A stretch of 64,000 bases of DNA from an uncultured Gammaproteobacteria bacterium (GTDB taxonomy: Bacteria > Pseudomonadota > Gammaproteobacteria > Eutrophobiales > Eutrophobiaceae): positions 129,463 through 193,462 of the forward strand of contig CALSOP010000008.1 of assembly GCA_943788005.1 (NCBI GenBank), written 5' to 3'. The translations under genes and the position numbers were made by a program. Below are positions 40,796-64,000 of the stretch, in pieces. The notes under the pieces are model-generated. The model saw only the letters and a program-made list of their open reading frames with translations, was not told the DNA's origin and made no database searches. Numbering within the stretch: the stretch's first letter is position 1; each line of letters begins with the position of its first letter.

Positions 40796-42213
<1,418 letters not shown>

Positions 42214-46703: not shown

Positions 46704-46946
46704 ATGGCAACGGCGACAATTACATCAAAAGGGCAAATCACTATCCCGAAGGAAATCCGGAAAAATCTTAATCTTCATAGTGGGGATCGGATTAATTTTT
46801 TTATGGAAAAATCCGGTAGGGTTTGTATATTGCCCGCAACACAGGATATCACTGCACTAAAAGGTATAATTACTAAACCAGAAAAACCGGTAACCGTGGA
46901 TGAAATGAAGAAGACAATTCGTAAGAGAGGTGGGAAGTTAGTGTGA
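46704..46946 (+). CDS. vapB: AbrB/SpoVT-family antitoxin (VapB-like)
   Basis: TITSKGQITIPKEIRKNLNLHSGDRINF is a SpoVT/AbrB swapped-hairpin motif. There is a 4-nt overlap with the PIN gene. Confidence 0.8.
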   Translation: MATATITSKGQITIPKEIRKNLNLHSGDRINFFMEKSGRVCILPATQDITALKGIITKPEKPVTVDEMKKTIRKRGGKLV

Positions 46947-47338
46947 AAGGGATCGATACCAATGTATTGGTAAGATACCTCGTTCAGGATGAGCCGAAGC
47001 AATCAAAAAAAGCGGCTACATTTATTGAAAAACATTGCAGCATTGAAGCCCCATGTTTTATCAGTCACATAGTATTGTGTGAGCTAAGTTGGGTACTGGA
47101 AAGTAATTATGACCAGAGCAGGCTCTCAATCGCAGCAACTATAGAACAACTGTTGCTGACAGCACAATTAGAAGTCATGGAAGCTGAGGTTGTATGGAAG
47201 GCTTTACGTGATTATAAAATTGCAAATGCAGATTTTTCTGATCATCTTCTTGCCAGAGTCAATGAGTCCAGAGGGTGTGATGAAACTGTGACCTTTGATA
47301 AGAAGGCCGGCAAACAACCCTTTTTTACATTGCTGTAA
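46943..47338 (+). CDS. vapC: PIN-domain ribonuclease toxin (VapC-like)
   Basis: GIDTNVLVRYL (first acidic residue) and the conserved later D/E positions. 131 aa. Confidence 0.8.
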   Translation: MKGIDTNVLVRYLVQDEPKQSKKAATFIEKHCSIEAPCFISHIVLCELSWVLESNYDQSRLSIAATIEQLLLTAQLEVMEAEVVWKALRDYKIANADFSDHLLARVNESRGCDETVTFDKKAGKQPFFTLL

Positions 47339-47426
47339 TACATACTTTGGACTATTTTTATTAGTGGTTTGGGATTCAGAGTTTAGCCCCGAGCCCCGAA
47401 ACACAAAACTAGAACCTTTTTTAAAA

Positions 47427-47927
47427 ATGAAATCCTGGTATCTAATACAAGCTAAGCCAAAGTCTGAGAAGTCAGCGAAAGAAAACCTTGAAAGACAAGG
47501 TTACGTAACCTACCTTCCGCTTATTCTTGGTAGAACAAAGAGGCGCGGAAAAACAATTAAAGCCATTCAACCGATGTTCCCGAGATATCTATTTATTCAT
47601 CTTAGCGATCAAACAGACGACTGGGGACCTATCCGTTCAACACTTGGCGTTTCAAATTTAGTGCGGTTTGGTATTACACCTGCAAAAGTACCGGAGGCTC
47701 TAATAAACTCATTAAAACAAAATGAAAATAATCTGGGAATTTACGAGCTTCCTAGTAAAACCCTATCTCATGGGGATAAACTTTTGATTGTTGAAGGACC
47801 GTTTGAGGGCTATGAAGCAACCTTATTTAGTCAAAAATCCGATGATCGTGTTATTGTACTTTTAAAAATAGCTGAAAAATTTGTAAAAGTTAAGCTAGAG
47901 AAATCTCTTATTGAACCATTAAACTAA
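47427..47927 (+). CDS. rfaH: Transcription antiterminator RfaH (NusG paralogue)
   Basis: MKSWYLIQAKPKSEKSAKENLERQG ... PMFPRYLFIH ... GVSNLVRFG..PAKVP ... GDKLLIVEGPFEGYEATL aligns along its length with E. coli RfaH as I recall it. The upstream part of the track ORF is an extension. Confidence 0.8.
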   Translation: MKSWYLIQAKPKSEKSAKENLERQGYVTYLPLILGRTKRRGKTIKAIQPMFPRYLFIHLSDQTDDWGPIRSTLGVSNLVRFGITPAKVPEALINSLKQNENNLGIYELPSKTLSHGDKLLIVEGPFEGYEATLFSQKSDDRVIVLLKIAEKFVKVKLEKSLIEPLN

Positions 47928-48001: not shown

Positions 48002-49243
48002 ATGATTAATAAATTATCTATCTGGTTAAAAGAATATTGGCCTTGCATATTAATTTTGCTAACAATAATAGGGTTTGTTAGTAAGTCTCTCTACAACTAC
48101 CCGATGGGGATAATGGCCGTAATAGGTTTATATCGAGTTACACTATCAGCAAAATCTATTTGGAACGATCAAGTACAAAAAACATTTGTTATTGTATTTT
48201 TATGCTTATGGTTACCACTATTGCTGTCATTCCCAGATGCCGTTAATCAATCGCATTCAGCCAAAACTATCTTTCCCTACCTCAGGTTTCTATTTGCTGG
48301 GCTATTTATTATTCAGGAATTATCGAAAGATAAAAAACGATTACAGTTTATTGTTTATGCTGTATTTATTATTGTGACGTTTTGGTGTGCCGATGCTGCC
48401 CTTCAATTTTTTATCGGGCATGATTTGTTCGGATATCTATATGCTAAACAATTTAGTATATCTGGCATGTTTTACCCGAGAAATACTATTTCTCACGTAT
48501 GTTCAATACTCTCTGCTTTTTGTTTTTTTACGGTATACCAAAACACACATAAAGATAAATGGCTATGGTTGACGCTTTTGCCGCTTTTCTTTGTGGTTCT
48601 TATAAGTGGTAGGCGAGCTGCATGGGTAATGTTGGCGCTATCTTCTTTCGGTTTTTGTATTTATCTTTATTTATATTCTAATAATAAAAAAATGATATTA
48701 AAAATAACCGGGGTTATTACTCTTGCTATCAGTATTGCGCTTAGTTCAACGATAATATTACATAAACCCACGAATGATCGCTTTAAGGAAACATTAGGTT
48801 TATTTAGTAATAATTATGATTCTATAAATGTTGCTACAGCAATACGGTTGCCGATATGGGGAACTGCTTATACAGCTTTTAAAGACAATCCAATTAATGG
48901 TATAGGACCTAGAGGCTTTCGCCATGTTTACCAGGAATACGCATCAAAAGATAATTATTTTCAAAGTCAGACTCACCCCCATCTCCTCATTCTTGAAATC
49001 ATGACCGAAACAGGTGTGATTGGTATGCTAGGCTATTTGGTTTTGTTATTTCTGTTAGTAAAAAATCTGCTAAAGAAGAAAACATTAAGGAATGATTTTC
49101 CTTATATATTGCCTGTGTTTGTCGCTTTATTCCCCTTTAATGCGCATATGGCATTTTACGGTTCGATATGGTCGACTATGATCTGGTGGTTAATGGCTAT
49201 TTACTTTTCAAACATTCGTTTAAATGAACAACAGAATAGTTAA
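48002..49243 (+). CDS. O-antigen ligase family (WaaL/Wzy_C) membrane protein
   Basis: 413 aa with about 10-12 TM helices and a large loop with RRAAW/..H.. features typical of the Wzy_C domain. Confidence 0.6.
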   Translation: MINKLSIWLKEYWPCILILLTIIGFVSKSLYNYPMGIMAVIGLYRVTLSAKSIWNDQVQKTFVIVFLCLWLPLLLSFPDAVNQSHSAKTIFPYLRFLFAGLFIIQELSKDKKRLQFIVYAVFIIVTFWCADAALQFFIGHDLFGYLYAKQFSISGMFYPRNTISHVCSILSAFCFFTVYQNTHKDKWLWLTLLPLFFVVLISGRRAAWVMLALSSFGFCIYLYLYSNNKKMILKITGVITLAISIALSSTIILHKPTNDRFKETLGLFSNNYDSINVATAIRLPIWGTAYTAFKDNPINGIGPRGFRHVYQEYASKDNYFQSQTHPHLLILEIMTETGVIGMLGYLVLLFLLVKNLLKKKTLRNDFPYILPVFVALFPFNAHMAFYGSIWSTMIWWLMAIYFSNIRLNEQQNS

Positions 49244-50326: not shown

Positions 50327-50896
50327 TTATACAGGATTTTTTTCAGGGGAATTTTTATAGTATTGTTGTGCGGTTATACCAACAATAATAAGGTCCATGG
50401 GTTTTCCATTAAATAGATAATGATCTTTTAAAATCGCTTCTTCTTTCCATCCCGCTGATATGAATGCACGTGTACTTATTTTAATTTCAGCATACATACT
50501 AGCAACTAATTTATTCATTTTCATATCATTAAACGCATGGTTTGTTATTATATTAATTGCTTCAGTAGCATACCCTTTTCCCCATTCTGATGTTTCTCCA
50601 ATAAATAAACTGATTTCGGCTAATTTATGTTGTTTTCGTATCGGACCAAGTTTGATGTTGCCTATATGTTTATTATGAAGCTTTAAAAATATCCCAAATA
50701 AATATTCATTTTTTGATTTATTTTTATCAGTAATAAAATTTTTAATGCTTTGTATTGACTGTTTTTCATGTCTTGTTTCTAAGTAGCGGTTTACTTGGGG
50801 ATTATTTAACCAATCACTGTACGCCTTTGAAGCATCTACATGATCCAGGCCGCGTAAATACAGGGAACTACCTTCTAACCGGGGCGAATGGGGCAT
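50327..50896 (-). CDS. GNAT-family N-acetyltransferase (RimJ/RimL-like)
   Basis: LR.LD..DA....DWLN.P.V.RYLE N-terminal pattern and an acetyl-CoA loop (WGKGYATEA). Confidence 0.75.
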   Translation of the reverse strand: MPHSPRLEGSSLYLRGLDHVDASKAYSDWLNNPQVNRYLETRHEKQSIQSIKNFITDKNKSKNEYLFGIFLKLHNKHIGNIKLGPIRKQHKLAEISLFIGETSEWGKGYATEAINIITNHAFNDMKMNKLVASMYAEIKISTRAFISAGWKEEAILKDHYLFNGKPMDLIIVGITAQQYYKNSPEKNPV

Positions 50897-51152: not shown

Positions 51153-51197
51153 GTTCATATTTTGAACGCAATTGTATATACTGTTCACCATATGAAC
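51153..51197. promoter_or_regulatory. Two GTTCA-N5-TGAAC palindromes 30 bp apart (candidate operators)
   Basis: GTTCAtatttTGAAC (51153-51167) and GTTCAccataTGAAC (51183-51197). The second covers the regulator ATG at 51192. Confidence 0.35.
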
Positions 51198-51798
51198 AAC
51201 AAAGATAAAGATGATTCTCTTACACTTGAAATCCTACAAGTTATTGAAAATCAGAATGATGTAACACAACGACATCTTGCAGATAAACTTGGAGTGGCTC
51301 TTGGTTTGGCAAACTCATACTTGAAACGCTGCGTATTAAAAGGACTGGTAAAGGTTCAGCAAGCGCCGGCTAATCGATATTTGTATTATTTAACCTTAAA
51401 AGGATTTGCAGAAAAAAGTCGATTAACAGCAGACTATTTAAGTACGTCATTTAATTTTTATCGCGATGCAAGTTCAAGTATTACTCAGATTTATCAACAA
51501 TATGAAGCAACTTGTTTAAAACGTATTTTGTTTTGTGGTGTTTTCTGAACTTGCAGAGATTGCTTCTATTAGATCCCATGATTATAAATTCAATATTGTA
51601 GGTATTTTTGACCCATTAACTGATAAGAAAAATTTTCTCGATCTTCAAGTCATTAATGATCTAAAAAAAGCTCCTGTATTTGACGCTTGTTTAGTAACTT
51701 CATTAAGTGATGCTCAAGAATTATTTGCATTGCTGAATAAAAATATTGCCCCTGAAATAATTTACGTTCCCTCAATATTGGGTATCAATAGAAATTAA
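51192..51798 (+). pseudogene. MarR-type EPS-associated wHTH regulator with a C-terminal extension, split by a +1 frameshift
   Basis: The wHTH part (VTQRHLADKLGVALGLANSYLKRCVLKGLV) ends ..ILFCGVF-stop. Removing one T from the run at 51539-51542 gives ..ILFCGVSELAEIASIRSH.., which joins it to ORF 51535-51798. Confidence 0.55.
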
Positions 51799-51880
51799 TT
51801 TATTAAGGTCAACTTGAAATGGTTGGCTAATAATTTCAAACGTAAAAAAATTATATACAGTGAAATTATTGCACTGTATT

Positions 51881-51891
51881 GCGGTAGCCTG
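51881..51891 (+). promoter_or_regulatory. ops-like element (GCGGTAGCCTG) in a JUMPStart-like leader
   Basis: It matches the RfaH recruitment consensus GGCGGTAGnnTG at 9 of the 10 specified positions. It is preceded by CAGTG...GCACTG and lies 22 nt upstream of the probable ABC-transporter ATG (51913). Confidence 0.5.
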
Positions 51892-51912
51892 CCTGTTAAT
51901 AATATATTTGAT

Positions 51913-53682
51913 ATGACCACATTTAATAAAATCTGGAAAATACTTACAGTAGAGCAGCATAAAAATGCTGTCATTTTACTTTTTCTGATGATTCTGGGAA
52001 TGCTTCTTGAAACATTAGGATTCAGTTTGCTTCTTCCAGCATTAGCATTAATGACACAAAATGATCTAGTCAATCAATACCCTTTCCTAAGACCATTTCT
52101 TGATTATCTGGGTAATCCATCTACAAACGAACTAATAGTAATTGGTATGATTATGCTTGCAATTGTTTATACAATAAAAGCATTATTTTTGGGCACACTT
52201 GCTTGGTTACAGGCAAAGTTTGCTTTTGCCGTTCAGGCGAATGTATCTCAGCGATTATTCAAAAATTATTTGTTTCAACCTTATACCTTCCATTTACAAC
52301 ATAACTCAGCTCAGTTAATTCGCAATACAACTAACGAAGTAAGTATGTTTAACGCAGTCACTCAGTCTGCATTGATGATAATAGCGGAAGGTTTGGTTTT
52401 TTTAGGTATTGCAACATTGTTGTTATTTATTGAACCTGTTGGAGCATGTTTAGTCATTACGCTTCTTGGTTTAGCAGGTTGGAGTTTTCACAAACTCACT
52501 AAAAATATGATCTTGAAATGGGGTGAAGCACGCCAATTTCACGAAGGCCTACGAGTCCAGCATTTACAACAGGGATTGGGTGGCGTGAAAGAGGTAAAGT
52601 TAATGGGACGAGAAAATGAATTTCTGTCGCAGTTTCGTATTCATAATTACGGTTCTGCGAAAATTGGTGAGTTTCAAACAACAGTGAAATCATTACCACG
52701 TTATTGGTTAGAACTTTTAGCTGTCATAGGATTAGTAACTTTAGTCATGGTTATGATGGAACAAAATAAGCCAATGAGTTCTATTGTGCCCACACTTGGT
52801 GTTTTTGTGGCTGCTGCATTTCGGGTGATGCCATCTGTTAATAGAGTTCTTAGTGCATTTCAGACCTTAAGGTTTGCTACGCCTGTGGTTAATATGTTGT
52901 ATGAGCAGCTACACCTCGTTGCAGAACACAAACATAATAATGTTCATGCGCCTTTTTCAATTAAAAATTCGATAGAACTAAAGGATGTTAGTTTTGCCTA
53001 CCCTGAGACCGCAAGTTTTGCTTTAAATAGTATAAATATTTCAATTCCACAAGGGTCAATGACAGGTTTCATTGGTACGACTGGAGCAGGAAAAAGTACA
53101 CTGGTAGATATAATACTTGGTTTGATTCACCCGACTAAAGGAACTGTATTTGTAGACAATACAGATATCCAAAAAGAAATACGTTCTTGGCAAGACTTAA
53201 TCGGCTATGTGCCGCAATCAATTTTTCTTACGGATGATACATTATTAAGAAATGTTGCTTTTGGGATACCTATAGACCAAGTGGATGAAGAAAAAGTCTG
53301 GAGTGCATTACGGTCTGCACAGCTTGATTCATTTGTTAGAGAATTAAGTTTGGGTTTGAATACCGTCGTTGGTGAAAGAGGTGTCCGTCTTTCCGGGGGG
53401 CAACGACAAAGAATAGGAATTGCTCGGGCTTTGTATCATGAACCTCAGATACTCATATTGGATGAAGCAACAAGTTCTTTAGATATTGATACTGAGCATG
53501 ATGTAATGAATGCAGTGAACGCTATGCATGGAGATAAGACGATTATAATTGTCACGCACAGACTTACAACTGTTGAAAACTGCGACCTATTGTATCGACT
53601 TGAGAAAGGTCGAGTCGTTAAAGAAGGCTCACCTGAATCAATGTTTAAAACAATTAGCCCTGCCGGGGCGTACAGCAGCTAA
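51913..53682 (+). CDS. ABC transporter, fused permease/ATPase (MsbA-like exporter)
   Basis: A six-TM N-terminal domain, Walker A GTTGAGKST, signature LSGGQRQR and Walker B ILILDEATS. The start at MTTFNKIW is chosen over the track start at 51814. Confidence 0.85.
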   Translation: MTTFNKIWKILTVEQHKNAVILLFLMILGMLLETLGFSLLLPALALMTQNDLVNQYPFLRPFLDYLGNPSTNELIVIGMIMLAIVYTIKALFLGTLAWLQAKFAFAVQANVSQRLFKNYLFQPYTFHLQHNSAQLIRNTTNEVSMFNAVTQSALMIIAEGLVFLGIATLLLFIEPVGACLVITLLGLAGWSFHKLTKNMILKWGEARQFHEGLRVQHLQQGLGGVKEVKLMGRENEFLSQFRIHNYGSAKIGEFQTTVKSLPRYWLELLAVIGLVTLVMVMMEQNKPMSSIVPTLGVFVAAAFRVMPSVNRVLSAFQTLRFATPVVNMLYEQLHLVAEHKHNNVHAPFSIKNSIELKDVSFAYPETASFALNSINISIPQGSMTGFIGTTGAGKSTLVDIILGLIHPTKGTVFVDNTDIQKEIRSWQDLIGYVPQSIFLTDDTLLRNVAFGIPIDQVDEEKVWSALRSAQLDSFVRELSLGLNTVVGERGVRLSGGQRQRIGIARALYHEPQILILDEATSSLDIDTEHDVMNAVNAMHGDKTIIIVTHRLTTVENCDLLYRLEKGRVVKEGSPESMFKTISPAGAYSS

Positions 53683-53698
53683 TTTGAGTTAGTTATAG

Positions 53699-54619
53699 GT
53701 GTTTACTAAACAATCGATAATTATTACTGGTGGCTCTGGTCTTTTAGCAATTAATTGGGCTATTGCACAACGTACAAAATACTCAGTAACTCTTGGGATG
53801 AACAAAAGGAATGTTACTCTAAAAGGCGTCAAGTCTGTTAAATTTCCAATGACATCAATTAATTCAATAGTCGATTATTTAAATAGCAATAAGCCAACGC
53901 TATTTATACATGCAGCTGGATTAACAAATGTAGAAAAATGTGAGTCAGAACCAGATTTGGCTAATTTTGTTAATGTTGAATTGTCAAGGAATGTTGCGGA
54001 TGCCTGCGCAATAACAGGTACAAAGCTTGTTCTTATTTCAACAGATCATTTGTTCTCAGGCAAGAATTCACTAGCGTCGGAATCAGATGAACTAGAGCCG
54101 CTAAATGTATACGGTGCCACCAAAGCAGAAGCGGAAAGTTATGCCTCTGAAAAATGCCCAAACGCATTAATAGTTAGGACCAATTTTTTTGGCTGGGGAT
54201 TAAAATATAGAAAATCATTCAGTGACATGATAATAAATGCATTAAGAAACAATAAAAAAATTACACTTTTTGAAGATGTATTTTATACCCCAATATTAAT
54301 TGAAACGCTTGCGAATACAATTCATCAACTAGCCGAATCAGGAGCACAAGGAGTTTATAATGTAGTTGGAGATGAACGCATTTCTAAACTAGAGTTTGGT
54401 TATAAATTGGCAAGGTGTTTTTCTTTGGATCCTGATTTAATTTCCCCTTTGTCAATATCAGAAAAAAACGACCTGGTAAGACGCCCCCATGATATGAGTT
54501 TATCTAATTCAAAAACGTGCAAATATCTCGGAAAAAAGATTGGCGACATAGAAAGCCAGCTAAATATTTTATATAAACAAGAACAACTTGGTTTAGTGAA
54601 GGAGCTTGAAAAGTTATGA
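53699..54619 (+). CDS. RmlD-like NAD(P)-dependent sugar-nucleotide reductase
   Basis: ITGGSGLL Rossmann motif, STDHLF, and catalytic YGATK. GTG start. Confidence 0.7.
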   Translation: MFTKQSIIITGGSGLLAINWAIAQRTKYSVTLGMNKRNVTLKGVKSVKFPMTSINSIVDYLNSNKPTLFIHAAGLTNVEKCESEPDLANFVNVELSRNVADACAITGTKLVLISTDHLFSGKNSLASESDELEPLNVYGATKAEAESYASEKCPNALIVRTNFFGWGLKYRKSFSDMIINALRNNKKITLFEDVFYTPILIETLANTIHQLAESGAQGVYNVVGDERISKLEFGYKLARCFSLDPDLISPLSISEKNDLVRRPHDMSLSNSKTCKYLGKKIGDIESQLNILYKQEQLGLVKELEKL

Positions 54620-55788
54620 TCCCGTATGGTCAACATCATATTGATGAGAGTGATATTCAAGAAGTAGTAAATGTGCTCAGACATGGAGACCTTACCCAAG
54701 GTCCAAAAATAAAGGAGTTTGAAAAAGCAATTGCCGAATATGTAAATGTAAAATATGCTGTCGCAGTTTCGAGTGGAACAGCTGCTTTGCATCTTGCAGC
54801 TATCGCTGCTGGAATTGATCCAGAACATCATTTAATAACCTCGCCTATCTCATTTGTTGCCAGCGCAAACGCTGCTTTGTACTGCGGCGGTAAAGTGATT
54901 TTTTCAGATATAAACCCTGATTCTATTAATCTTTGTCCCAATACATTATCTAATACATTACTAAAACATAATAATGTTCGTGCAATAATACCCGTTCATT
55001 TTGCGGGATTACCCTGTGATATGCAGCTAATCAAATCTATTGCAGATAAACATGGTGTTTCTGTTATCGAAGATGCCGCACATGCGTTAGGTGCAAAATA
55101 TGAAAATGGTGACATGGTTGGATCATGTGTTTATTCAGATGCTACGGTATTTTCTTTCCACCCTGTAAAAGCAATAGCCGCAGGGGAAGGTGGCATGGTT
55201 ACGACCAATGATGAATCACTCTATCGCAAGATATTAAGACTACGCAGCCATGGTATTAATAAGTTGGATGATCCAATGGAATTTCCAGATCAGGCAAATG
55301 AAGACGGGATTCCAACGCCTTGGTATTATGAAATGCAGGAACTTGGTTTTAATTACCGAATTACTGATATCGAGTGTGCTTTGGCACTTTCGCAGCTGAA
55401 AAAACTGGATAAGTTTCTGGATAGGCGTCGTGAGCTAGTTAAAAAATATAATGCAGCATTTTCTGATCTAAAGAATTGCCGTCCAGCACAAACAACCAGT
55501 ATTGAAAAAAGTGGCCATCACTTGTATGTGCTTCGTATTGATTACAAATCATTAGGTGTAAGTAGAGCAGAACTTATGCGAGAACTTAAACTTAATGAGA
55601 TTATTTGTCAGGTTCACTATATACCCATTCCGGCACAACCATATTATCGGAAACTAGGTTTTAATCCTGAAGATTATCCAAATGCATACTGCTATTATCA
55701 AGAAGCTTTGAGTATTCCTCTTTATTATGATTTAACAGATGAACAACAAATATACATTATAGACGTCTTTAAAAAGCTTCTAGCGTGA
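54616..55788 (+). CDS. pseC: UDP-4-amino-4,6-dideoxy-N-acetyl-beta-L-altrosamine transaminase (PseC-type DegT aminotransferase)
   Basis: IPYGQHHIDESDIQEVVNVLRHGDLTQGPKIKEFE is the PseC-type N-terminus. The PLP Lys region is SFHPVKAIAAGEGG. Confidence 0.8.
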   Translation: MIPYGQHHIDESDIQEVVNVLRHGDLTQGPKIKEFEKAIAEYVNVKYAVAVSSGTAALHLAAIAAGIDPEHHLITSPISFVASANAALYCGGKVIFSDINPDSINLCPNTLSNTLLKHNNVRAIIPVHFAGLPCDMQLIKSIADKHGVSVIEDAAHALGAKYENGDMVGSCVYSDATVFSFHPVKAIAAGEGGMVTTNDESLYRKILRLRSHGINKLDDPMEFPDQANEDGIPTPWYYEMQELGFNYRITDIECALALSQLKKLDKFLDRRRELVKKYNAAFSDLKNCRPAQTTSIEKSGHHLYVLRIDYKSLGVSRAELMRELKLNEIICQVHYIPIPAQPYYRKLGFNPEDYPNAYCYYQEALSIPLYYDLTDEQQIYIIDVFKKLLA

Positions 55789-56648
55789 AAATAGTATTAG
55801 GTACTGCACAGTTTGGGCTTGATTATGGTGTGGCAAATCAGCAAGGACAAATACAAAAAAGTAAAGCAAGAGACATACTTAATTATGCAAAAGAAAATGG
55901 TATCAGTGTACTTGATACAGCTATTGCTTATGGTGAAAGTGAACAGGTGTTGGGTGAGTTGGGGGTAAGCGAATGGGATATTATAACTAAAATTCCCTTG
56001 ATAAAGGAAAACAGACAAAATTATTTTCTCTCGCTAAAAGAAACACTAAGAAGCTCTTTACAAAGATTAAATGTATCAAATTTATATGGTGTGCTATTAC
56101 ATAGCCCCAAGCAATTATTAAGCACTGATGGCGAAAGAATATATCGAGCATTAGAAGAAATAAAGACTGAGGGCCTAATAAAAAAAATAGGGATATCAAT
56201 TTATGACCCGGTTGACCTGGATATACTTTGTGCTAATTTTGATTTTGATATAGTACAGGCTCCATTTAATATTATGGATCGCCGAATAATTAATTCTAAT
56301 TGGAATAAAAAGTTGGCAGAAAAAAATATTGAACTACATGTGCGGTCTATTTTCTTACAAGGTTTATTACTGCTCCCTCCTGATAAGCGTCCGAATAAAT
56401 TTAGCCAATGGAGTTCACTGTGGTCGAAATGGGATGCTTGGATAAGTGAGAATAATTTAACTCCGTTACAATCATGCCTGCATTTTGCGATGTCAAATTT
56501 ATCGATTAACAAAATTGTTGTAGGTATTGATAGTTGTGCTCAGCTTAAAGAGATACTCGAGTCAATATCCGGCGAGTTCCCAGAACCACCTGATGATTTA
56601 CAAAGTGACGACCTTACATTGATAAACCCATTTAACTGGCCTGAGTAA
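55785..56648 (+). CDS. Aldo/keto reductase
   Basis: LGTAQFGLDYG...LDTAIAYGESE pattern. 287 aa. Confidence 0.75.
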   Translation: MKIVLGTAQFGLDYGVANQQGQIQKSKARDILNYAKENGISVLDTAIAYGESEQVLGELGVSEWDIITKIPLIKENRQNYFLSLKETLRSSLQRLNVSNLYGVLLHSPKQLLSTDGERIYRALEEIKTEGLIKKIGISIYDPVDLDILCANFDFDIVQAPFNIMDRRIINSNWNKKLAEKNIELHVRSIFLQGLLLLPPDKRPNKFSQWSSLWSKWDAWISENNLTPLQSCLHFAMSNLSINKIVVGIDSCAQLKEILESISGEFPEPPDDLQSDDLTLINPFNWPE

Positions 56649-58675
56649 TGAAAATTATAGCTGTAGTACAGGCACGTATGGGCTCTAAACGTTTACCAAA
56701 TAAGGTAATGCAAACAATAAATGGTGTGCCGATGATAGAGTTACTACTGAATCGGTTATCAATGGTTTCATGTATAGACCAAATAATACTCGCAACACCT
56801 TCAAGTGCTAGTAATAGCATATTGAATGCTCATGTACGTAATTTAGGCTATGAAGTATACAATGGTAGTGAGAATGATGTGCTTGATCGATATTATCAGG
56901 CAGTAAAAGATAAACGTCCTGATGCTGTGATCAGAATAACGGGTGACTGTCCGTTAATTGATCCAAGCCTTGTTAATGATATTGTTAAAGCATTCATTGA
57001 ACAGAATGTAGATTACCTTAGCAATACGCTTGACCCTACTTATCCTGATGGTTTAGATACAGAAATCTTTACGTATAAATCACTTGAAAAGGCAGCGGAC
57101 CTTGCAAAACTGCCTAAAGAGCGTGAGCATGTAACGCCGTACATTTATGAGTCCGGTTTATTTAAAACTGCAAGTTATAAACATGCACAAGACCATTCTG
57201 ATAAACGTTGGACGGTTGATGAAGCTTCAGACTTTCAAGTCATTTCTTCTATTTATAATTACTTTAGTCCTTGTATAGATTTTAGTTGGCAGGATGTTTT
57301 AGCGTTACAAGAAAAAGAGCCAGAGTTATTCATGTTAAATCAACATCTAATGAGAAATGAGGGGACACATATGGGTGCTGGACAAAAACTTTGGAAAAGG
57401 GCAAAACAAGTTATCCCCGGAGGTAACATGTTGCTTTCCAAACGGCCTGAGATGTTTTTGCCTGAACAATGGCCCTCCTACTTTAGTAGAGCAAAGGGTT
57501 GTAAGGTTTGGGATCTGGATGATAAAGAATATATTGATATGTGTTTCATGGGCATTGGTACTAATATTTTGGGATATGGAAATCGTGAAGTGAATGATGC
57601 AGTTCATAGAACTGTTGATGCTGGAAATATGTCAACTCTAAATTGTCCTGAAGAAGTATATCTTGCCGAAAAACTAATTGAACTTCATCCGTGGGCCGAT
57701 ATGGTTCGTTTAGCCCGTACTGGAGGTGAAGCCAATGCCATCGCCATTCGTATAGCGCGTGCCGCATCTGGTAAAGATAAAATAGCCTTTTGTGGTTATC
57801 ATGGATGGCATGATTGGTATCTTGCAGCCAATCTAAAAGATGAAAAAAACCTTGCAGGTCATTTACTTCCTGGATTAGAACCAAGAGGTGTGCCTCAAAA
57901 TCTGCAAAATTCAATTTATCCATTTACATACAACAACATTGGTGAGTTAAAAGCTTTAATTCAAAACCATGAAATTGGTGTCATCAAAATGGAAGTGTTC
58001 CGTAATCACCAACCAGAAGATGATTTTCTAAAGAAAGTAAGGAAACTAGCAACAGAAAATAATATTGTTTTGATTTTTGATGAATGCACATCCGGTTTTA
58101 GACAAAATTTTGGTGGTTTACATAAAATATATGATGTAGAGCCAGATATTGCTGTCTTTGGAAAAGCTTTAGGTAATGGTTATGCAATTACTGCAATTAT
58201 TGGTCGACGTGAAATAATGGAAAGTGCTCAATCTTCATTTATTAGCAGTACTTTTTGGACTGAACGTATTGGTCCTACGGCAGCACTTAAAACATTAGAA
58301 GTAATGGAAGAATTGAAGTCATGGGAATTAATCACAGAGTCGGGTGAAAAAATAACACAGCGGTGGAAAGATTTAGCAGAAAGCTCAGGGCTACATATTA
58401 CAACTAGTGGAATGCCCGCTTTAACATCATTTTCAATAAATAGTCCTAATAAACTCTTATATAAGACACTCATAACTCAAGAAATGATGAAGAGAGGTTA
58501 TATCGCTGGTACGAGTATATATATATGTGTTGAACATACTCAGGATATTATAGATAAGTATTTTATTAATCTAGAACCGGTTTTTGATCTTATAAAAGAG
58601 TGTGAAGATGGGCGTGATGTAAATAGTTTTCTTAAAGGACCCGTTTGTCATGATAGTTTTAAACGACTAAATTAA
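56648..58675 (+). CDS. Fusion protein: SpsF-like cytidylyltransferase (about aa 1-245) and class-III PLP aminotransferase resembling glutamate-1-semialdehyde aminomutase (about aa 250-675)
   Basis: The N-terminus is IIAVVQARMGSKRLPNKV...ITGDCPLIDP. The C-terminus has GGNMLLSKRP.., LARTGGEAN, DECTSGFR, and a PLP Lys region FGKALGNGY. Confidence 0.75.
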   Translation: MKIIAVVQARMGSKRLPNKVMQTINGVPMIELLLNRLSMVSCIDQIILATPSSASNSILNAHVRNLGYEVYNGSENDVLDRYYQAVKDKRPDAVIRITGDCPLIDPSLVNDIVKAFIEQNVDYLSNTLDPTYPDGLDTEIFTYKSLEKAADLAKLPKEREHVTPYIYESGLFKTASYKHAQDHSDKRWTVDEASDFQVISSIYNYFSPCIDFSWQDVLALQEKEPELFMLNQHLMRNEGTHMGAGQKLWKRAKQVIPGGNMLLSKRPEMFLPEQWPSYFSRAKGCKVWDLDDKEYIDMCFMGIGTNILGYGNREVNDAVHRTVDAGNMSTLNCPEEVYLAEKLIELHPWADMVRLARTGGEANAIAIRIARAASGKDKIAFCGYHGWHDWYLAANLKDEKNLAGHLLPGLEPRGVPQNLQNSIYPFTYNNIGELKALIQNHEIGVIKMEVFRNHQPEDDFLKKVRKLATENNIVLIFDECTSGFRQNFGGLHKIYDVEPDIAVFGKALGNGYAITAIIGRREIMESAQSSFISSTFWTERIGPTAALKTLEVMEELKSWELITESGEKITQRWKDLAESSGLHITTSGMPALTSFSINSPNKLLYKTLITQEMMKRGYIAGTSIYICVEHTQDIIDKYFINLEPVFDLIKECEDGRDVNSFLKGPVCHDSFKRLN

Positions 58676-58683
58676 AAATAACC

Positions 58684-59763
58684 TTGAATATTTTATTTAG
58701 AGTAGATGCGTCACATGTGATAGGCATAGGACACTTAATGAGATGTCTGGCTTTAGCTGCTGAACTAAAGAAACATAATATGTATATATGTTTTATATGC
58801 AGAAATTTGCCAAAAAGCTTATATAACTTAGTAGAGAAAAACAAACATGATCTGATTGTTTTGAAACATGTCGAAGATATAAAACAACAAGATGAATTGA
58901 AGCACTCATTTTTCCTTGGGACGAGTCAGGCAACAGATGCAATAGATACTATAGAAGCAATATCTGACAAAAGTTGGGATTGGTTGATTATTGATCACTA
59001 CGCAATTGACAATAGATTCGAGATGACTTTAAAAAAGTATGTAGAAAGAATCATGGTTATTGATGATATTGCAGATCGCCAACATGAGTGTGATGTACTA
59101 TTAGATCAAAATCTTTACGCTGACATGGATGAACGTTATGTAGAGAAGGTGCCTGCAAGTTGCGCAATTCTTCTTGGTCCTGAATATGCACTTTTACGTA
59201 ATGAATTTGCCTGTTTACATAATAAAATAAAACCTAGGACAGGAGTAATTGAAAAGATTCTTGTTTTCTTTGGTGGTGTCGACCCTGAAAACCTTACTTC
59301 CTTATCAATAAATGCTATTAATAATTTATGTAATGAAAAATTGCATGTAGATGTGGTTGTAGGAACAGCCCATCCATATCGGCATGAGATTGAATCGGTT
59401 TGTAAATCTCTGAACTATAGTTGTCATGTCCAAACAGAACGAATGGCCGAACTTATGGCTGAATCTGACTTGGCAATTGGGGCAGGAGGGTCTGCAAGTT
59501 GGGAAAGATGCTGTTTAGGTTTAGCGACGATTTCTGTAGCCTTTGCAGATAACCAGTATGCAATCGCAAAACAATTGGATCGAGTGGGAGCTAGTATTTT
59601 TCTGGGCAATCATCATTCAGTCAGTCAAACAAAAATAGAAGATGCAATGTCTGAACTTATTCTCGATCGTGACAGGGTGAAGTCAATGTCTTCCACGGCA
59701 TATTCAATTGTAGACGGAAATGGTACAAAAAGAGTTTGTGAGATACTAAATCAATTTCAATGA
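58684..59763 (+). CDS. pseG: UDP-2,4-diacetamido-2,4,6-trideoxy-beta-L-altropyranose hydrolase (PseG-type)
   Basis: ILFRVDASHVIGIGHLMRCLALAAELKK is the PseG N-terminal signature, with a GT-B-like C-terminal half. TTG start. Confidence 0.75.
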   Translation: MNILFRVDASHVIGIGHLMRCLALAAELKKHNMYICFICRNLPKSLYNLVEKNKHDLIVLKHVEDIKQQDELKHSFFLGTSQATDAIDTIEAISDKSWDWLIIDHYAIDNRFEMTLKKYVERIMVIDDIADRQHECDVLLDQNLYADMDERYVEKVPASCAILLGPEYALLRNEFACLHNKIKPRTGVIEKILVFFGGVDPENLTSLSINAINNLCNEKLHVDVVVGTAHPYRHEIESVCKSLNYSCHVQTERMAELMAESDLAIGAGGSASWERCCLGLATISVAFADNQYAIAKQLDRVGASIFLGNHHSVSQTKIEDAMSELILDRDRVKSMSSTAYSIVDGNGTKRVCEILNQFQ

Positions 59764-60407
59764 AGATTACGCTTCTTTGTACAAATAAAAATCATCCTGT
59801 TATGCCGTATTTGGAGGAATGGCAATCTAGGATGAACGTTGAACATGACGTCGACATAGTGGACAGCAAAGAAAAATTATCCTGTGGAGATATTTTATAT
59901 CTTGTTTCATGTTCACAAATAATTGGTATTAATGAGCGCAAGAAATACGGAGTCTCCCTTGTACTCCATGCTAGTGACTTACCTAAAGGCAGAGGATGGT
60001 CACCATACATTTGGTCAATAATAAAGGGAATGACAGAAATTATTGTATGCGTGATTGAAGCAAATGACTCTGTTGATACTGGTGATATCTGGTTACGTAA
60101 AAAGATTACATTACAAGGTCATGAGCTGCTTCCCGAGATTAATGAAATATTATTTCGTGTAGAATTAGATTTGATGACTGAAGTAGTGGAACAGTTCGAT
60201 AAAATCAAACCTAAAACACAACTAGGTGACCCCGGTAGTTATATGCCCAGACGTACTCCTGAGGACAGCCGTCTTGATCCGAGTAAAAGTATTGCAGAAC
60301 AGTTTGATTTATTGCGAGTTGTTGATTCCGATAGATTTCCTGCGTTTCTGGATTTTCGAGGCGTAAGGTATATCTTAAAAATAGAAAAAGCTAATGAACC
60401 TGAATAA
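59760..60407 (+). CDS. Formyltransferase-family protein (Fmt/PurN N-terminal-domain type)
   Basis: HASDLPKGRGWSP corresponds to the H-x-S-L-L-P-x-x-R-G catalytic motif, and DTGDI lies downstream. 215 aa. Confidence 0.7.
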   Translation: MKITLLCTNKNHPVMPYLEEWQSRMNVEHDVDIVDSKEKLSCGDILYLVSCSQIIGINERKKYGVSLVLHASDLPKGRGWSPYIWSIIKGMTEIIVCVIEANDSVDTGDIWLRKKITLQGHELLPEINEILFRVELDLMTEVVEQFDKIKPKTQLGDPGSYMPRRTPEDSRLDPSKSIAEQFDLLRVVDSDRFPAFLDFRGVRYILKIEKANEPE

Positions 60408-60463
60408 AACATTATTCATTACCAATTTTAAAATGATTTAAATTTTTATAGGAAACCGATTTT

Positions 60464-61165
60464 ATGAAGATTGCTGTTTTACCGGCGCGAGGTGGTAGTA
60501 AGAGAATTCCACGAAAAAATATAAAGGATTTCTGTGGAAAACCAATGATCGCATGGTCAATTGAAGTAGCAAAAGCAGCTGATTTGTTTGATCATATTAT
60601 TGTTTCAACAGATGATTCTGAAATTGCGGACAAATCTATCGAGTATGGTGCTGAAGTCCCTTTCATCAGACCAGCTGAACTCTCTGATGACTTTACGGGC
60701 ACAAACGAGGTCATAGCACATACTGTACGATGGGCAATTGAACAAGGTTGGCCTGTTTCTTCTGTCTGTTGCATATATCCAGCTGCGCCATTTATTCAAA
60801 TTGATGATTTAAAACAAGGTTTGGAAGAACTAGAAAATGGCGGATGGGATTATGTTTTTCCTGCGACAGATTTTTCAGCTTCTATATTTAAATCATTACG
60901 ACAACTAGAAAATGGCGGCATTGAAATGTTCTTTCCGGAAAATTACACAAAAAGAAACCAAGATCTACCTATGGCACTTCAGGATGCGGCCCAATTTTAT
61001 TGGGGACGTAAAGATGCATGGCTAGAAGGAAAGAAGTTTTTTAATGGAGAAACTTACGCCGTAAAAATACCCGCGTGGAGAGTGCAGGATATTGATACAC
61101 CTGATGACTGGGCGCGTGCGGAAATTATTCATAAAGCAATATTAGAAAAAAACATGAATAAATAA
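60464..61165 (+). CDS. pseF: Pseudaminic acid cytidylyltransferase (PseF-type CMP-NulO synthetase)
   Basis: IAVLPARGGSKRIPRKNIKDFCGKPMIAWSIE is the PseF/NeuA-family N-terminus. Confidence 0.8.
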   Translation: MKIAVLPARGGSKRIPRKNIKDFCGKPMIAWSIEVAKAADLFDHIIVSTDDSEIADKSIEYGAEVPFIRPAELSDDFTGTNEVIAHTVRWAIEQGWPVSSVCCIYPAAPFIQIDDLKQGLEELENGGWDYVFPATDFSASIFKSLRQLENGGIEMFFPENYTKRNQDLPMALQDAAQFYWGRKDAWLEGKKFFNGETYAVKIPAWRVQDIDTPDDWARAEIIHKAILEKNMNK

Positions 61166-61171
61166 TTAGAT

Positions 61172-62215
61172 ATGATAATAAAAAACCAAAAAATTGGTAT
61201 TGATGAACCTCCTTTTATCATTGCTGAAATGTCAGGAAACCACAATCAGTCATTAGATAGGGCATTGCAAATGGTAACTGAAGCTGCAAATTCAGGAGTT
61301 GATGCAATAAAACTTCAAACATTCACTGCAGATACTATTACTCTTGATGTGCGATATGGAGATTTTCTTATTGATGATGAAGAAAGCCTATGGAATGGAA
61401 AAAATCTTTATGATTTATATAAACTAGCTCACACACCTTGGGAATGGCATGCCCCTATTATGGAACGGGCACAAGAACTCGGGTTAATATGTTTTAGTAC
61501 ACCGTTTGATGAAAGTGCCGTTGATTTTTTAGAAACACTTGATGTGCCTGCATATAAAATAGCCTCTTTTGAAAATATCCATCTGCCACTCATTAAAAAA
61601 GTTGCATCAACGGGTAAGCCTATATTGCTTTCTACTGGGATGGCTAGTTTAACTGAGCTTGGTGAAGCTGTTGATGTTATAAATAAAGCAGGTTGTAAAG
61701 ATCTAGTGATGCTCAAATGCACCAGCACTTATCCAGCAAAACCAACAAGTAGTAATATAATGACAATACCTAATATGAAAGATGTATTTAATTGCCAAGT
61801 CGGATTGTCAGATCATACGTTAGGTATTGGTGTGGCGATAGCCGCCGTAGCACATGGTGCAACAGTGATTGAAAAACATTTTACTCTTAATCGGAAAGAT
61901 GGTGGTGTGGATAGTGCGTTCTCGTTGGAACCAAGTGAATTTCGTTCATTAGTCGAGGAAACAAAACGAGCATGGCAGTCTTTAGGGAATATCAGTTATG
62001 GAACAAGTGACGCAGAAACGAATTCAAAAATATTCAGGCGCTCTCTTTATATTTCAGAGGATGTAAAGAAAGGGGATGTTTTAACTGAGAAAAACCTTCG
62101 TTGTGTGCGGCCAGGGATGGGAATGCCGCCAAAATACATAGATATTTTACTAGGAAAACGCGTGAATCAGGATTTAAGAAAAGGGACGCCAATGAATTGG
62201 GGTTTAATTGAATAG
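61172..62215 (+). CDS. pseI: Pseudaminic acid synthase (PseI-type, NeuB family)
   Basis: PPFIIAEMSGNHNQSLDRAL, LSDHT, and a C-terminal SAF domain (antifreeze-like). Confidence 0.85.
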   Translation: MIIKNQKIGIDEPPFIIAEMSGNHNQSLDRALQMVTEAANSGVDAIKLQTFTADTITLDVRYGDFLIDDEESLWNGKNLYDLYKLAHTPWEWHAPIMERAQELGLICFSTPFDESAVDFLETLDVPAYKIASFENIHLPLIKKVASTGKPILLSTGMASLTELGEAVDVINKAGCKDLVMLKCTSTYPAKPTSSNIMTIPNMKDVFNCQVGLSDHTLGIGVAIAAVAHGATVIEKHFTLNRKDGGVDSAFSLEPSEFRSLVEETKRAWQSLGNISYGTSDAETNSKIFRRSLYISEDVKKGDVLTEKNLRCVRPGMGMPPKYIDILLGKRVNQDLRKGTPMNWGLIE

Positions 62216-62225
62216 TTAGTTTTGT

Positions 62226-63188
62226 ATGTACAGTGTCTTAATAATAGGCTTAGGGAATATTGGTATGGGTTATGACCTTAACCATGATCCAGATAAATAT
62301 ATTCTTTCCCATGCCAGAGCGTTTCAAAAACATCCTAAATTTAAATTAATTGCAGGGGTTGATGTAGATATAGATCGCCGCGAGTTATTTGAATCACACT
62401 ATGGATGCCCTGCATTTACTACAGTTAGTGAAGCGTTAAAAAAGTCTAAAGCAGATGTGATCGTCGTCTCAAACCCAACCAAGCAACATATTCGTGCTTT
62501 GCAAGAAATTATTGAGTTTGGTCTACCCAGAGCTGTTTTATGTGAAAAACCTATAGCGTTTGATGTTAAACAGGCAGATGAAATAACAACTATTTTCAAA
62601 AAAAGAGGGTGCGAATTTTATGTAAATTACATGCGTCGTTCAGATGTAGGTGTTCATGAGCTATATGAGCGAATACATAGTGAGAATATTATTACGCCAG
62701 TGAAAGGGAACGTGTGGTATACAAATGGGTTATTTAATAATGCATCACATTTTATAAATCTATTGGAATACTTATTTGGAAAAGTTGAGAAATCAATTGT
62801 ACTTGATTCGGGCAAGAGGTCGATTTGTTCTGATCCAGAACCCGACTTTCAGCTTTCATTTGAAAAAGGAAAATTTAACTTCGTAGCTTTACCTGGCAAT
62901 AGTTTCTCTCATAACGTTCTTGAAATTATTGCATCAAATGGACGGATTCGATATGAGAATGGTGGAGAAAAAATAACATGGGAAGCCATAGAGTCAAATA
63001 AATTATTTCCAGGCCATGTTACTTTAAGTCTTGAAAAAGAAGTTTTACCTTCAGACTACAGACGTATTCAGTGGCATGTGGTCGATCAGCTCTCAGTATC
63101 TATGGATGGTGGGTCTGCACGAATTTGTAATGGAGATGATGCTCTAGGAACATTATATGTTCTTGACGATATTGAAAATCAATTATGA
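62226..63188 (+). CDS. Gfo/Idh/MocA-family oxidoreductase
   Basis: The N-terminal Rossmann motif IIGLGNIGMGY and a CEKP motif. 320 aa. Confidence 0.7.
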   Translation: MYSVLIIGLGNIGMGYDLNHDPDKYILSHARAFQKHPKFKLIAGVDVDIDRRELFESHYGCPAFTTVSEALKKSKADVIVVSNPTKQHIRALQEIIEFGLPRAVLCEKPIAFDVKQADEITTIFKKRGCEFYVNYMRRSDVGVHELYERIHSENIITPVKGNVWYTNGLFNNASHFINLLEYLFGKVEKSIVLDSGKRSICSDPEPDFQLSFEKGKFNFVALPGNSFSHNVLEIIASNGRIRYENGGEKITWEAIESNKLFPGHVTLSLEKEVLPSDYRRIQWHVVDQLSVSMDGGSARICNGDDALGTLYVLDDIENQL

Positions 63189-64000
63189 ATAAGAATAGTA
63201 GAAATAAAAAGGGTCAATTAGTTATCAATGGTGGTGAAAAAGTTATTCAAAAACCATTTGAGCGTTATCAGTCAATTGGCAAAGAAGAAGTTGAAGCAGC
63301 CAAGTCTGTTATTGAGTCAGGTGTGTTGTCAAAGTTTCTTGGTTGCTGGCATGAAGATTTCTATGGAGGCCCAAAGGTAAGAGAATTTGAAGAACTCTGC
63401 AAAGATTATTTTGATGTAAAGCATGCTATAACAGTCAATTCTTGGACTTCAGGATTAATTGCAGCAGTCGGTGCTATAGGAATCGAACCTGGAGATGAAG
63501 TCATAGTTAGTCCATGGACAATGTGTGCAAGTGCTACAGCAATTTTGCATTGGAATGCAATTCCTGTATTTGCAGATATTGAAACAGAGACCTTTTGTCT
63601 TGACCCTGAGTCTGTCAGAGCAAATATCACATCAAATACAAAAGCGATAATGGCTGTTGATATTGGTGGTCACTCAGCAAATATGACTAAGTTAAATGCA
63701 ATTGCAGAGGAATACAGTCTTAAAATTATTTCAGATACAGCACAAGCTCCGGGAGCATTGTATAAAGGTAAATATGCAGGCACATTAGCTGATGTTGGGG
63801 GGTATAGCCTTAATTATCACAAACATATTCATACTGGCGAAGGAGGAATACTCGTCACTAATGATGATGATATAGCAGAACGATTGCGCTTAATCAGAAA
63901 TCATGCCGAAGCTGTCGTAGGAGATAAAGGCGTAGAAGATATTAGTAATATGATTGGTCACAATTTCAGGCTAGGTGAAATTGAGTGTGCAATAGGCATC
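63185..64000 (+). CDS. Second DegT/DnrJ/EryC1/StrS-family aminotransferase, 3'-partial (runs off the window)
   Basis: The ATG at 63185 overlaps the previous stop and the frame is open to the window end. It encodes ...VIVSPWTMCASATAILHWNAIPVFADIE... and SLNYHKHIHTGEGG (the PLP Lys region). Confidence 0.8.
   Translation, partial: MNKNSRNKKGQLVINGGEKVIQKPFERYQSIGKEEVEAAKSVIESGVLSKFLGCWHEDFYGGPKVREFEELCKDYFDVKHAITVNSWTSGLIAAVGAIGIEPGDEVIVSPWTMCASATAILHWNAIPVFADIETETFCLDPESVRANITSNTKAIMAVDIGGHSANMTKLNAIAEEYSLKIISDTAQAPGALYKGKYAGTLADVGGYSLNYHKHIHTGEGGILVTNDDDIAERLRLIRNHAEAVVGDKGVEDISNMIGHNFRLGEIECAIGI

Follow-up and report, generated by a model that had tools for sequence, protein, structure and literature searches.

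Which surface sugar is made by a locus that carries four genes of pseudaminic acid (Pse) synthesis interleaved with enzymes that this synthesis does not need? The question is raised by a 64-kb stretch of DNA from an uncultured, probably marine, gammaproteobacterium (the window), and specifically by its positions 51,814-64,000, the first 12 kb of a gene array. Nonulosonic acids (NulOs) are found on flagella, capsules, and O-antigens, where they influence how phages and immune systems recognize the cell, and the canonical route to one of them, CMP-Pse5Ac7Ac of Helicobacter and Campylobacter, consists of PseB, PseC, PseH, PseG, PseI, and PseF. Judged from the enzymes that it encodes, the array, part of a surface-glycan island, probably directs synthesis of a multiply N-modified, CMP-activated sugar of the Pse family and not of plain Pse5Ac7Ac. 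The latter is an unlikely product, as the original prediction for this locus also held, because enzymes beyond the six-enzyme route are present.

The array opens with 11 open reading frames (ORFs), all on the + strand from 51,814 onward and, in the ORF table, overlapping by 1 to 4 nt or separated by gaps of 6 to 56 nt; the co-directional, overlapping, or tightly spaced genes of the original prediction were all found as described. Families were assigned by NCBIfam equivalog cut-offs, together with a Pfam scan of the window ORFs, as follows.

51814-53682, +, PglK/MsbA-like ABC exporter, 622 aa (ABC_membrane and ABC_tran, Pfam)
53699-54619, +, RmlD-family, putative nucleotide-sugar 4-ketoreductase, 306 aa (RmlD_sub_bind, 156 bits)
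54616-55788, +, PseC (TIGR03588, 498 bits; cut-off, 423.5)
55785-56648, +, aldo/keto reductase (AKR), 287 aa, partner of the next protein (PF00248, 111 bits)
56648-58675, +, cytidylyltransferase-aminotransferase fusion (CT-AT), 675 aa (CTP_transf_3, PF02348, and Aminotran_3, PF00202)
58684-59763, +, PseG, UDP-sugar hydrolase, short form without fused GNAT (TIGR03590, 307 bits; cut-off, 153.6)
59760-60407, +, formyltransferase-fold protein (Fmt), 215 aa (Formyl_trans_N, PF00551, 40 bits)
60464-61165, +, PseF, CMP-pseudaminic acid synthetase (TIGR03584, 291 bits; cut-off, 205.7)
61172-62215, +, PseI, pseudaminic acid synthase (TIGR03586, 504 bits; cut-off, 340.3)
62226-63188, +, Gfo/Idh/MocA oxidoreductase (Gfo), 320 aa, start of a second module (GFO_IDH_MocA, PF01408, 65 bits)
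63185->64000 (cut by the window end), +, second DegT aminotransferase (DegT2), 432 aa in full (PF01041, 294 bits)

Four of these proteins, PseC, PseG, PseF, and PseI, exceed their equivalog cut-offs and are true members of their families. The models used (TIGR03588, TIGR03590, TIGR03584, and TIGR03586) were those put forward for checking the original prediction, whose Pse-type nonulosonic acid cluster is thereby borne out. The RmlD-like, AKR, and ABC proteins are, by their scores, generic family members: the RmlD-like protein reaches 154 bits against an NCBIfam cut-off of 224, the best NCBIfam model for AKR (KidO) gives 162 bits against 244, and the exporter falls below the cut-offs of both the PglK model (366 bits against 1000) and the MsbA model (279 against 602).

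The extra enzymes recur in other genomes. The synteny sample comprised 80 related loci, in which ORFs were called and labelled against the window proteins; individual loci and contigs are cited below by L number. The pair of AKR and CT-AT constitutes a conserved module that recurs across phyla beside PseB, PseC, PseG, and PseI. AKR is encoded in 66 of the 80 loci, adjoining CT-AT, while a NeuB-family synthase occurs in 55, PseC in 52, PseG in 37, and WbuX in 17; PseB was counted in 45 loci by ORF labelling and in 52 by tblastn. The complete core of PseB, PseC, PseG, PseI, and AKR is found in 22 loci, 19 of which have no separate PseF, and nine loci combine an RmlD-like protein and a NeuB-like synthase without PseC and mostly without PseG. 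Homologues of the CT-AT protein number more than 8000, the best being 68-81% identical; identity is 63-70% in most best-matching genomes, across phyla, and CT-AT is matched in at least 596 species-representative genomes. Its carriers include Verrucomicrobia, Chlorobium, cyanobacteria, SAR11, Leptospira, Legionellaceae, and Bacteroidota. Cultured strains with the module include Marinobacter persicus UTICA-S1B3 (L037), Neptuniibacter caesariensis MED92 (L059), Leptospira sp. 96542 (L047), Synechococcus MIT S9452 (L060), and L. pneumophila serogroup 6 Thunder Bay. The window cluster is one ordinary member of a large, widespread pathway family and not a one-off oddity. The original prediction was right that the arrangement is non-canonical, yet it is a common one, with AKR and CT-AT beside PseB, PseC, PseG, and PseI in hundreds of species. 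Likewise, all five extra enzymes said to be interleaved with the core are present, not as a loose tailoring set but as parts of conserved modules.

Residues 1 to ~235 of CT-AT form a SpsF/KdsB-like cytidylyltransferase (motif ARMGSKRLPNK; PDB match 6oew, 1e-39), and residues ~245 to 675 form a class-III aminotransferase dependent on pyridoxal phosphate (PLP). The latter resembles glutamate-1-semialdehyde (GSA) aminomutase (PDB match, 3e-37) and carries the motifs DECTSGFR and FGK506, with K506 as the PLP lysine. The catalytic tetrad of AKR (D44, Y49, K69, and H106) is invariant among 24 homologues, and to judge by sequence the catalytic motifs or domains of AKR, CT-AT, Gfo, and DegT2 are intact. 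The fused CT is of the generic KdsB/SpsF type and not TIGR03584; it must be the CMP-NulO synthetase of most loci. A generic CT of this type, SpsF of B. subtilis, is required for the use of legionaminic acid. Other fusions occur among the relatives: L048 encodes a CT-AKR fusion directly 5' of CT-AT, and in L021 and L034 AKR is fused to a GNAT of the type found upstream of the window array (GNATup). In the NulO papers examined, eight natural 5,7-diamino isomers are described, and no function is assigned to the CT-AT module. The last 11.8 kb of the window are 100% identical to independent short-read assemblies (L002-L005), so the CT-AT fusion and the gene order are not assembly artefacts. The long contig that holds this locus, L001 (ENA ERZ10645735 contig_5248, 724 kb), shows 10 single-base gaps when 11.8 kb of it are compared with the window. 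The genes for the ABC protein, PseC, and CT-AT are broken up by these gaps, and gene calls from that assembly are unreliable.

Relatives of the module were also met in other settings. Five homologues consist of the AT domain alone, with no CT, and are 63-71% identical (L077, L081, L082, L084, and L085; Alphaproteobacteria and related metagenome-assembled genomes [MAGs]). Four of them (L077, L081, L082, and L084) adjoin ABC-transporter genes, not glycan genes, so the AT family also occurs outside NulO clusters. AKR, full-length CT-AT (43% identical), and PseB (45%) are encoded on viral contigs (L088/L089, IMG/VR GVMAG-M-3300010334-45, 102 kb; and L090, which adds a PseI fragment), one of these contigs being binned as a giant-virus MAG; the AKR and CT-AT module may be virus-borne, or the viral bins may be contaminated. 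A FemAB-family protein (TIGR04421, 309 bits) lies between PseC and AKR in L016, L017, and L053 and just 3' of PseI in L025, L027, and L054, which suggests aminoacyl, not acetyl, decoration of the sugar in those loci.

Fmt probably replaces PseH as an N-acyl (perhaps formyl) transferase, as its predicted fold and its setting indicate. It carries only the C-terminal two-thirds of Formyl_trans_N in Pfam, and its subfamily numbers more than 2000 proteins, all of ~215 aa. The fold was checked by searching an AlphaFold2 model (pLDDT 87.7) with Foldseek, which returned WbkC, VioF, Rv3404c, and ArnA-N at TM scores of 0.70-0.77. Among 25 subfamily members, His70 and Asp106 are invariant, as is Val68 at the position of the catalytic Asn of formyltransferases, and the Asn-His-Asp triad of N10-formyl-tetrahydrofolate transferases is thus incomplete. 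The fusion of PseG to Fmt in L044 suggests that Fmt stands in PseH's place. A long form of PseG (480-582 aa) occurs in 17 of the 37 relatives with PseG, and the one tested (L028) consists of PseG plus a PseH-like domain. No GNAT of PseH grade (TIGR03585; cut-off, 93.1 bits) was found at the window locus: the best score, 38.5 bits, belongs to GNATup (50327-50896, -), and the GNAT downstream of the window, of the Acetyltransf_3 type, reaches 19.7 bits. GNATup is weakly PseH-like and was considered as a candidate for the PseH role. Its homologues are present in 20 of the 80 loci, some inside the Pse core and some beside WbuX-HisH-HisF, and often occur in addition to PseH-type domains.

A partial precedent for such a replacement is PseJ, a formyltransferase of Anoxybacillus kamchatkensis that yields 7-N-formyl Pse as CMP-Pse5Ac7Fo (Reimer et al. 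2018, cited in PMC11040635). The window resembles the PseJ route in having a formyltransferase-fold enzyme in a Pse cluster without PseH and differs in that its Fmt belongs to the shorter, 215-aa subfamily with Val for the catalytic Asn; no chain identifiable as PseJ was present among the PDB sequence matches or top 50 fold matches of Fmt. In the Pse clusters of L012, L030, L054, and L075, the neighbour of an LmbE-type deacetylase belongs to a second formyltransferase-like subfamily that lacks the Asn (motif FHMTD.PYGRGGSP), which hints at N5 de-N-acetylation and subsequent re-acylation.

The genes beyond PseI continue past the window end. Contigs with an identical Gfo protein, and then a second exact match, extend the view to 20 kb downstream (L087) and the co-directional array to at least 32 kb. 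The cluster is therefore much larger than 12 kb, running on into two WbuX genes, HisH/HisF, a CDP-sugar block, and methyltransferases. The DegT2 gene, whose start at 63,185 shares an ATGA with the stop codon of Gfo and which is complete in L001-L005, is followed by genes for a GNAT, a 298-aa protein of no assigned family (u298), WbuX, HisH, a HisF-like protein, a second WbuX, and an orphan 595-aa protein. Next come a Glc-1-P cytidylyltransferase, an RmlC-like epimerase, a C-methyltransferase, and a short-chain dehydrogenase/reductase (SDR) of epimerase/reductase type (350 aa). The WbuX copies score 273 and 314 bits (cut-off, 203) and HisH scores 169.5 bits (cut-off, 105), while the HisF-like protein, at 101.9 bits, is below the WbuZ cut-off of 299.7. 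The parts of a WbuX/WbuY/WbuZ (PseA-like) acetamidino system are all present, as an amidotransferase for N-acetyl sugars is accompanied by a HisH-like and a HisF-like protein. The orphan protein was considered as a LIC12162-family transferase, to which it has no similarity. Gfo, DegT, GNAT, and u298 form a second recurrent module. Homologues of Gfo and DegT2 occur together in nine of the 80 loci, and in L016, L028, L036, L047, L072, and others the four genes lie 3' of PseI with their own CTP_transf_3 gene; carriers include Chlorobium, Burkholderiales, Leptospira, and Kiloniella, among others.

Several known systems resemble parts of this arrangement. With the canonical Pse5Ac7Ac route the locus shares PseC, PseG, PseI, PseF, and the same UDP-GlcNAc-derived logic; it differs in being locally without two of the six features, PseB and PseH, and in adding the RmlD-like protein, AKR, CT-AT, Fmt, Gfo, DegT2, GNATs, and two WbuX proteins. 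EpaA (SBS22546.1), a fusion of CTP_transf_3 and Aldo_ket_red domains from A. baumannii prophages, acts with the SDR EpaB to convert Pse5Ac7Ac to 8-epi-Pse5Ac7Ac, as shown by NMR after complementation (PMC12053666; 2025). Compared by domains, the window has the same pairing in adjacent genes (and L048 has it fused), whereas the window CT is fused to a class-III aminotransferase instead and AKR is separate. No classical SDR, and so no EpaB-type adh_short_C2 dehydrogenase, was seen among the array genes scanned, and a classical FabG-like SDR family occurs in only seven of the 80 related loci. On its gene content, then, the locus is not an Epa system, having an aminotransferase in place of the EpaB-type SDR. 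Searches for EpaA relatives gave only a Staphylococcus phage match when the window AKR was compared with a phage collection by tblastn, and three unrelated contigs in a profile scan of viral contigs.

The nab (Pse) cluster of Vibrio sp. B9-25K2 also pairs the two activities, with an SpsF-like CT joined to AKR right after PseC (PMC7371886) and no NeuA/PseF, but it contains an Epa-like dehydrogenase and no class-III aminotransferase. The O-antigen locus Lp6_762-772 of L. pneumophila serogroups 6 and 12 is annotated with the same set of modules, comprising CapD/PseB, DegT, AKR-like, WbuX-type, HisH, HisF, acetyltransferase, cytidylyltransferase, GSA-aminomutase-like aminotransferase, PseG, and GNAT proteins (PMC3694923); there, CT and AT are separate genes, PseB is present, and no Gfo-DegT pair is listed. 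The aci/ela gene families of Acinetobacter were set aside as analogues, as the papers examined give SDR assignments only. The original prediction of a modified, possibly undescribed nonulosonic acid needs the reservation that partial precedents exist in 8-epi-Pse (EpaA/EpaB) and 7-N-formyl Pse (PseJ).

From family membership and conservation, both of which are observed, we infer all of the following chemistry. (i) PseB encoded elsewhere would supply UDP-4-keto-6-deoxy-L-AltNAc, and PseC would aminate this 4-keto sugar. (ii) Fmt, in PseH's position, would acylate the amine (N7), as PseJ does; PseG would remove UDP, and PseI would condense the sugar with phosphoenolpyruvate (PEP). (iii) AKR (as a redox step, as in EpaA) and AT would have as their substrate a nonulosonate intermediate with a keto group in the side chain, probably at C8, and the fused SpsF-like CT would CMP-activate the tailored sugar. 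(iv) Gfo, DegT2, and the downstream GNAT would form a second oxidise-transaminate-acetylate set. (v) The two WbuX proteins with HisH/HisF would turn acetamido into acetamidino groups, as PseA does in producing Pse5Ac7Am.

Step iii is speculative, both in routing side-chain tailoring by AKR and AT through a keto intermediate and in relying on EpaA to point to C8. In its most specific form, which we advance only tentatively, AKR and CT-AT would carry out an undescribed amination of a Pse-type side-chain hydroxyl (C8, possibly C4) through oxidation by AKR, transamination by AT, and CMP activation by CT. The accompanying GNAT would N-acylate the new amine in some loci, and Gfo-DegT2-GNAT and the two WbuX proteins of the window locus would add further N-functions. 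Some guidance on the direction of the reaction comes from the nine variant loci without PseC, six of which have an SDR family annotated as RmlD-like. If this protein is a 4-ketoreductase, as is presumed of the window copy, it would leave a hydroxyl at C7 and no amine to remove, so that "oxidise, then transaminate" would fit both variants better than "deaminate, then reduce."

Several points weigh against this scheme. First, aldo/keto reductases normally reduce, and the core has no EpaB-like SDR oxidase; which of AKR and AT acts first, and on which carbon, is therefore a guess. Second, with the catalytic Asn replaced by Val, formyl transfer by Fmt is not assured. Third, L010, L013, L055, L057, and L073 have a single N-acyltransferase, and an added amine would therefore remain free in those loci. 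Fourth, PseB is absent from -52 kb to +20 kb (72 kb) and is present in 52 of the 80 relatives; with no local PseB, the pathway cannot start from the locus alone. Fifth, Gfo-DegT2-GNAT could act on UDP-GlcNAc(A) instead.

The last of these points leads to the possible, if rather unlikely, alternative of two independent sugars. One would be an ordinary, 7-N-formyl, or 8-epi Pse, for which AKR and CT-AT would serve only as an Epa-like epimerase/activator. The other, a separate 2,3-diamino hexose or hexuronic acid, would be built on UDP-GlcNAc(A) by Gfo (WbpB/GnnA-like), DegT2 (WbpE/GnnB-like), and GNAT and amidinated by WbuX-HisH-HisF. The P. aeruginosa O5 pathway proceeds through WbpA, WbpB, WbpD, WbpE, and WbpG. 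In common with O5 (WbpA/B/D/E plus WbpG/HisH2/HisF2) and GnnA/GnnB, the array has Gfo, DegT, an N-acetyltransferase, and a WbuX-type protein with HisH/HisF; the logic of the whole set matches O5, with a likeness to the array enzymes at the family level only. The window acetyltransferase is, however, a GNAT and not of the left-handed-helix type of WbpD, and the window set directly follows PseI, with relatives adding their own CMP-transferase (CTP_transf_3). TviB-like and TviC-like genes do lie upstream in the window, but a TviB-like gene is present in none of the nine loci with Gfo and DegT2. Gfo has weak PDB matches and a weak match to the UDP-GlcNAc 3-dehydrogenase model (47.8 bits; cut-off, 450). 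DegT2 matches WbpE at 1e-35 but is closer to KdnA (5k8b, 2.5e-49), its best named PDB match, which aminates oxidised Kdo, and to perosamine synthase; the other of its best PDB matches is 8gyh (6e-51). A second activated sugar had also been allowed for in the original prediction.

The missing PseB raises a different alternative. It was sought by tblastn in the window, L001-L003, and L087, with four PseB proteins as queries, one of which was verified (526 bits). By this score, the ORF family sitting 5' of PseC in most of the 80 loci is PseB. No PseB was found in the window, where the sole match was a 26%-identical SDR stretch, or over 20 kb downstream. The tblastn results and the TIGR03585 scores thus agree with the original prediction that PseB and a PseH-type GNAT are missing locally, and the 20 kb beyond the window, where pseB and pseH might still have been encountered, contain neither. 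Two further SDRs, the TviC-like protein and the 350-aa SDR encoded downstream, were rejected as PseB, as they have epimerase/reductase motifs without the [ST]D[EK] dehydratase signature. In B. thuringiensis, PseB is replaced by Pen, a PseB-like 5,6-dehydratase, and Pal, structures of which were reported (Delvaux 2018, as cited in other work); the window and the following 20 kb differ in having no PseB/Pen-like gene. The RmlD-like protein was considered as a Pal analogue and rejected: its motif, STDH...YGATK, is of the reductase type (STD(H)...YxxxK), and its 38 PDB matches are RmlD (the best), MAT2B, and generic SDR chains, none labelled Pal.

The closest architectures to that of the window, in L066 (Rhodoferax) and L076 (Desulfotalea), read ABC-PseB-RmlD-like-PseC-AKR, with the RmlD-like gene between PseB and PseC. 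The window matches this order except that PseB is missing, with 16 nt between the ABC stop and the RmlD-like start. Such an order, with no PseB within 72 kb, would be expected if PseB had been deleted at this point and the Pse part were a decaying or non-functional remnant that makes no Pse-type sugar. This is improbable, as all of the other genes are intact, translationally coupled, and present in several independent assemblies. Further, L012, L039, L047 (Leptospira), and L069 are likewise without a local PseB, and Pse genes are often split between loci.

Nucleotidyltransferase-aminotransferase fusions are known in CMP-aminoethylphosphonate synthesis (phosphonate tailoring). By analogy with these fusions, and with AT-only homologues found in non-glycan contexts beside ABC transporters (L077-L085), AKR and CT-AT might be supposed to leave the nonulosonate alone and to produce a small substituent, activated with CMP or CDP and derived from an amino alcohol or an amino acid, that later decorates the glycan. 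This is very improbable: the CT belongs to the CTP_transf_3 (KdsB/NeuA/SpsF) type, whose substrates are ulosonic acids; 19 of the 22 full-core loci have no other CMP-NulO synthetase; the EpaA precedent ties CT and AKR to Pse itself; and neither a PEP mutase nor polyol-phosphate genes are present.

A multiply N-modified Pse-family sugar would have consequences beyond this window, which is a single example from an uncultured host. The triad of AKR, CT, and class-III AT is among the most conserved protein sets of these clusters and usually replaces PseF; abundant marine lineages are among the carriers of the module, and L. pneumophila serogroups 6 and 12 have it in their O-antigen locus. EpaA/EpaB shows that the CT-AKR half can create a new Pse isomer, and the AT variant would probably reveal another natural sugar; solving it would also correct many "glutamate-1-semialdehyde aminomutase" annotations. 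If side-chain amination were true, nonulosonic acids with three or more amino groups would be commonplace on the surfaces of hundreds of species, with carriers including SAR11, relatives of Prochlorococcus and Synechococcus, Leptospira, and non-serogroup-1 Legionella.

The array is preceded by further glycan genes, whose left boundary is a pair of tRNA genes.

42270-42465, +, tRNA-Ala(GGC) and tRNA-Glu(UUC) (ARAGORN, Rfam), left island boundary
42633-43640, +, NAD-dependent sugar-nucleotide 4-epimerase, TviC-like/UDP-uronate-epimerase-like (NCBIfam, below cut-off)
43637-44929, +, TviB/WbpO-like UDP-N-acetylhexosamine 6-dehydrogenase (TIGR03026, 396 bits, passes; TviB, 503 bits, cut-off, 592)
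44956-46260, +, UDP-glucose 6-dehydrogenase (Ugd) (TIGR03026, 480 bits)
47295-47927, +, RfaH-family operon antiterminator (TIGR01955, 147.4 bits; cut-off, 144.5)
48002-49243, +, Wzy_C membrane protein of O-antigen ligase or polymerase type (PF04932, 63 bits; cut-off, 31.7)
50327-50896, -, GNATup N-acetyltransferase (Acetyltransf_3, 69 bits; PseH model as given above)
51162-51548, +, MarR-family regulator associated with exopolysaccharide (EPS) (TIGR04176, 64.9 bits, cut-off, 88; HTH_24 and MarR in Pfam)

The tRNA pair lies directly 5' of the first glycan gene, and the GC content falls from 41.3% on its left to 36.3% on its right, as is typical of islands that are exchanged horizontally at tRNA genes. 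From there the order is epimerase, TviB-like protein, Ugd, MazE/PIN, RfaH, Wzy_C, the divergent GNAT, and the MarR-type regulator. The TviC-like protein has an SSS...YAATK motif without the [ST]D[EK] signature and so is not a 4,6-dehydratase. No ops element for RfaH was found near the cluster; GGCGGTAG occurs just once in the window, at 36.3 kb, as would be expected by chance. Genes of the MarR family also lie 5' of several related clusters. The WaaL-like protein of the original prediction was confirmed by Pfam as a Wzy_C-family membrane protein. The predicted ABC exporter is also present, closer to PglK than to MsbA, and its export of the product is inferred only. A PglK-like protein of this kind would probably be the flippase for a lipid-linked glycan. 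No Wzx was seen, and 20 of the 80 related loci encode an ABC homologue of 550 aa or more.

Three minor observations concern the flanks. Left of the island, at 38,480-42,210, leuC, leuD, and gltX (an essential gene) are each split over several reading frames, which looks like indel errors of assembly in that stretch rather than real pseudogenes. Between ugd and rfaH, at 46,704-47,338, lie genes for a MazE-type antitoxin (80 aa) and a PIN-domain toxin (131 aa). Finally, ~11-20 kb past the window (L087, 10,549-20,552), the CDP-sugar block of Glc-1-P cytidylyltransferase, RmlC-like epimerase, NDP-hexose C-methyltransferase, and SDR lies together with genes for a glycosyltransferase, five more methyltransferases, a radical-SAM enzyme resembling MiaB, and a dioxygenase of the TauD family. 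The sequence beyond the window is where the original prediction had proposed to look for glycosyltransferases, and the block as a whole suggests a heavily methylated, possibly branched-chain, second sugar.

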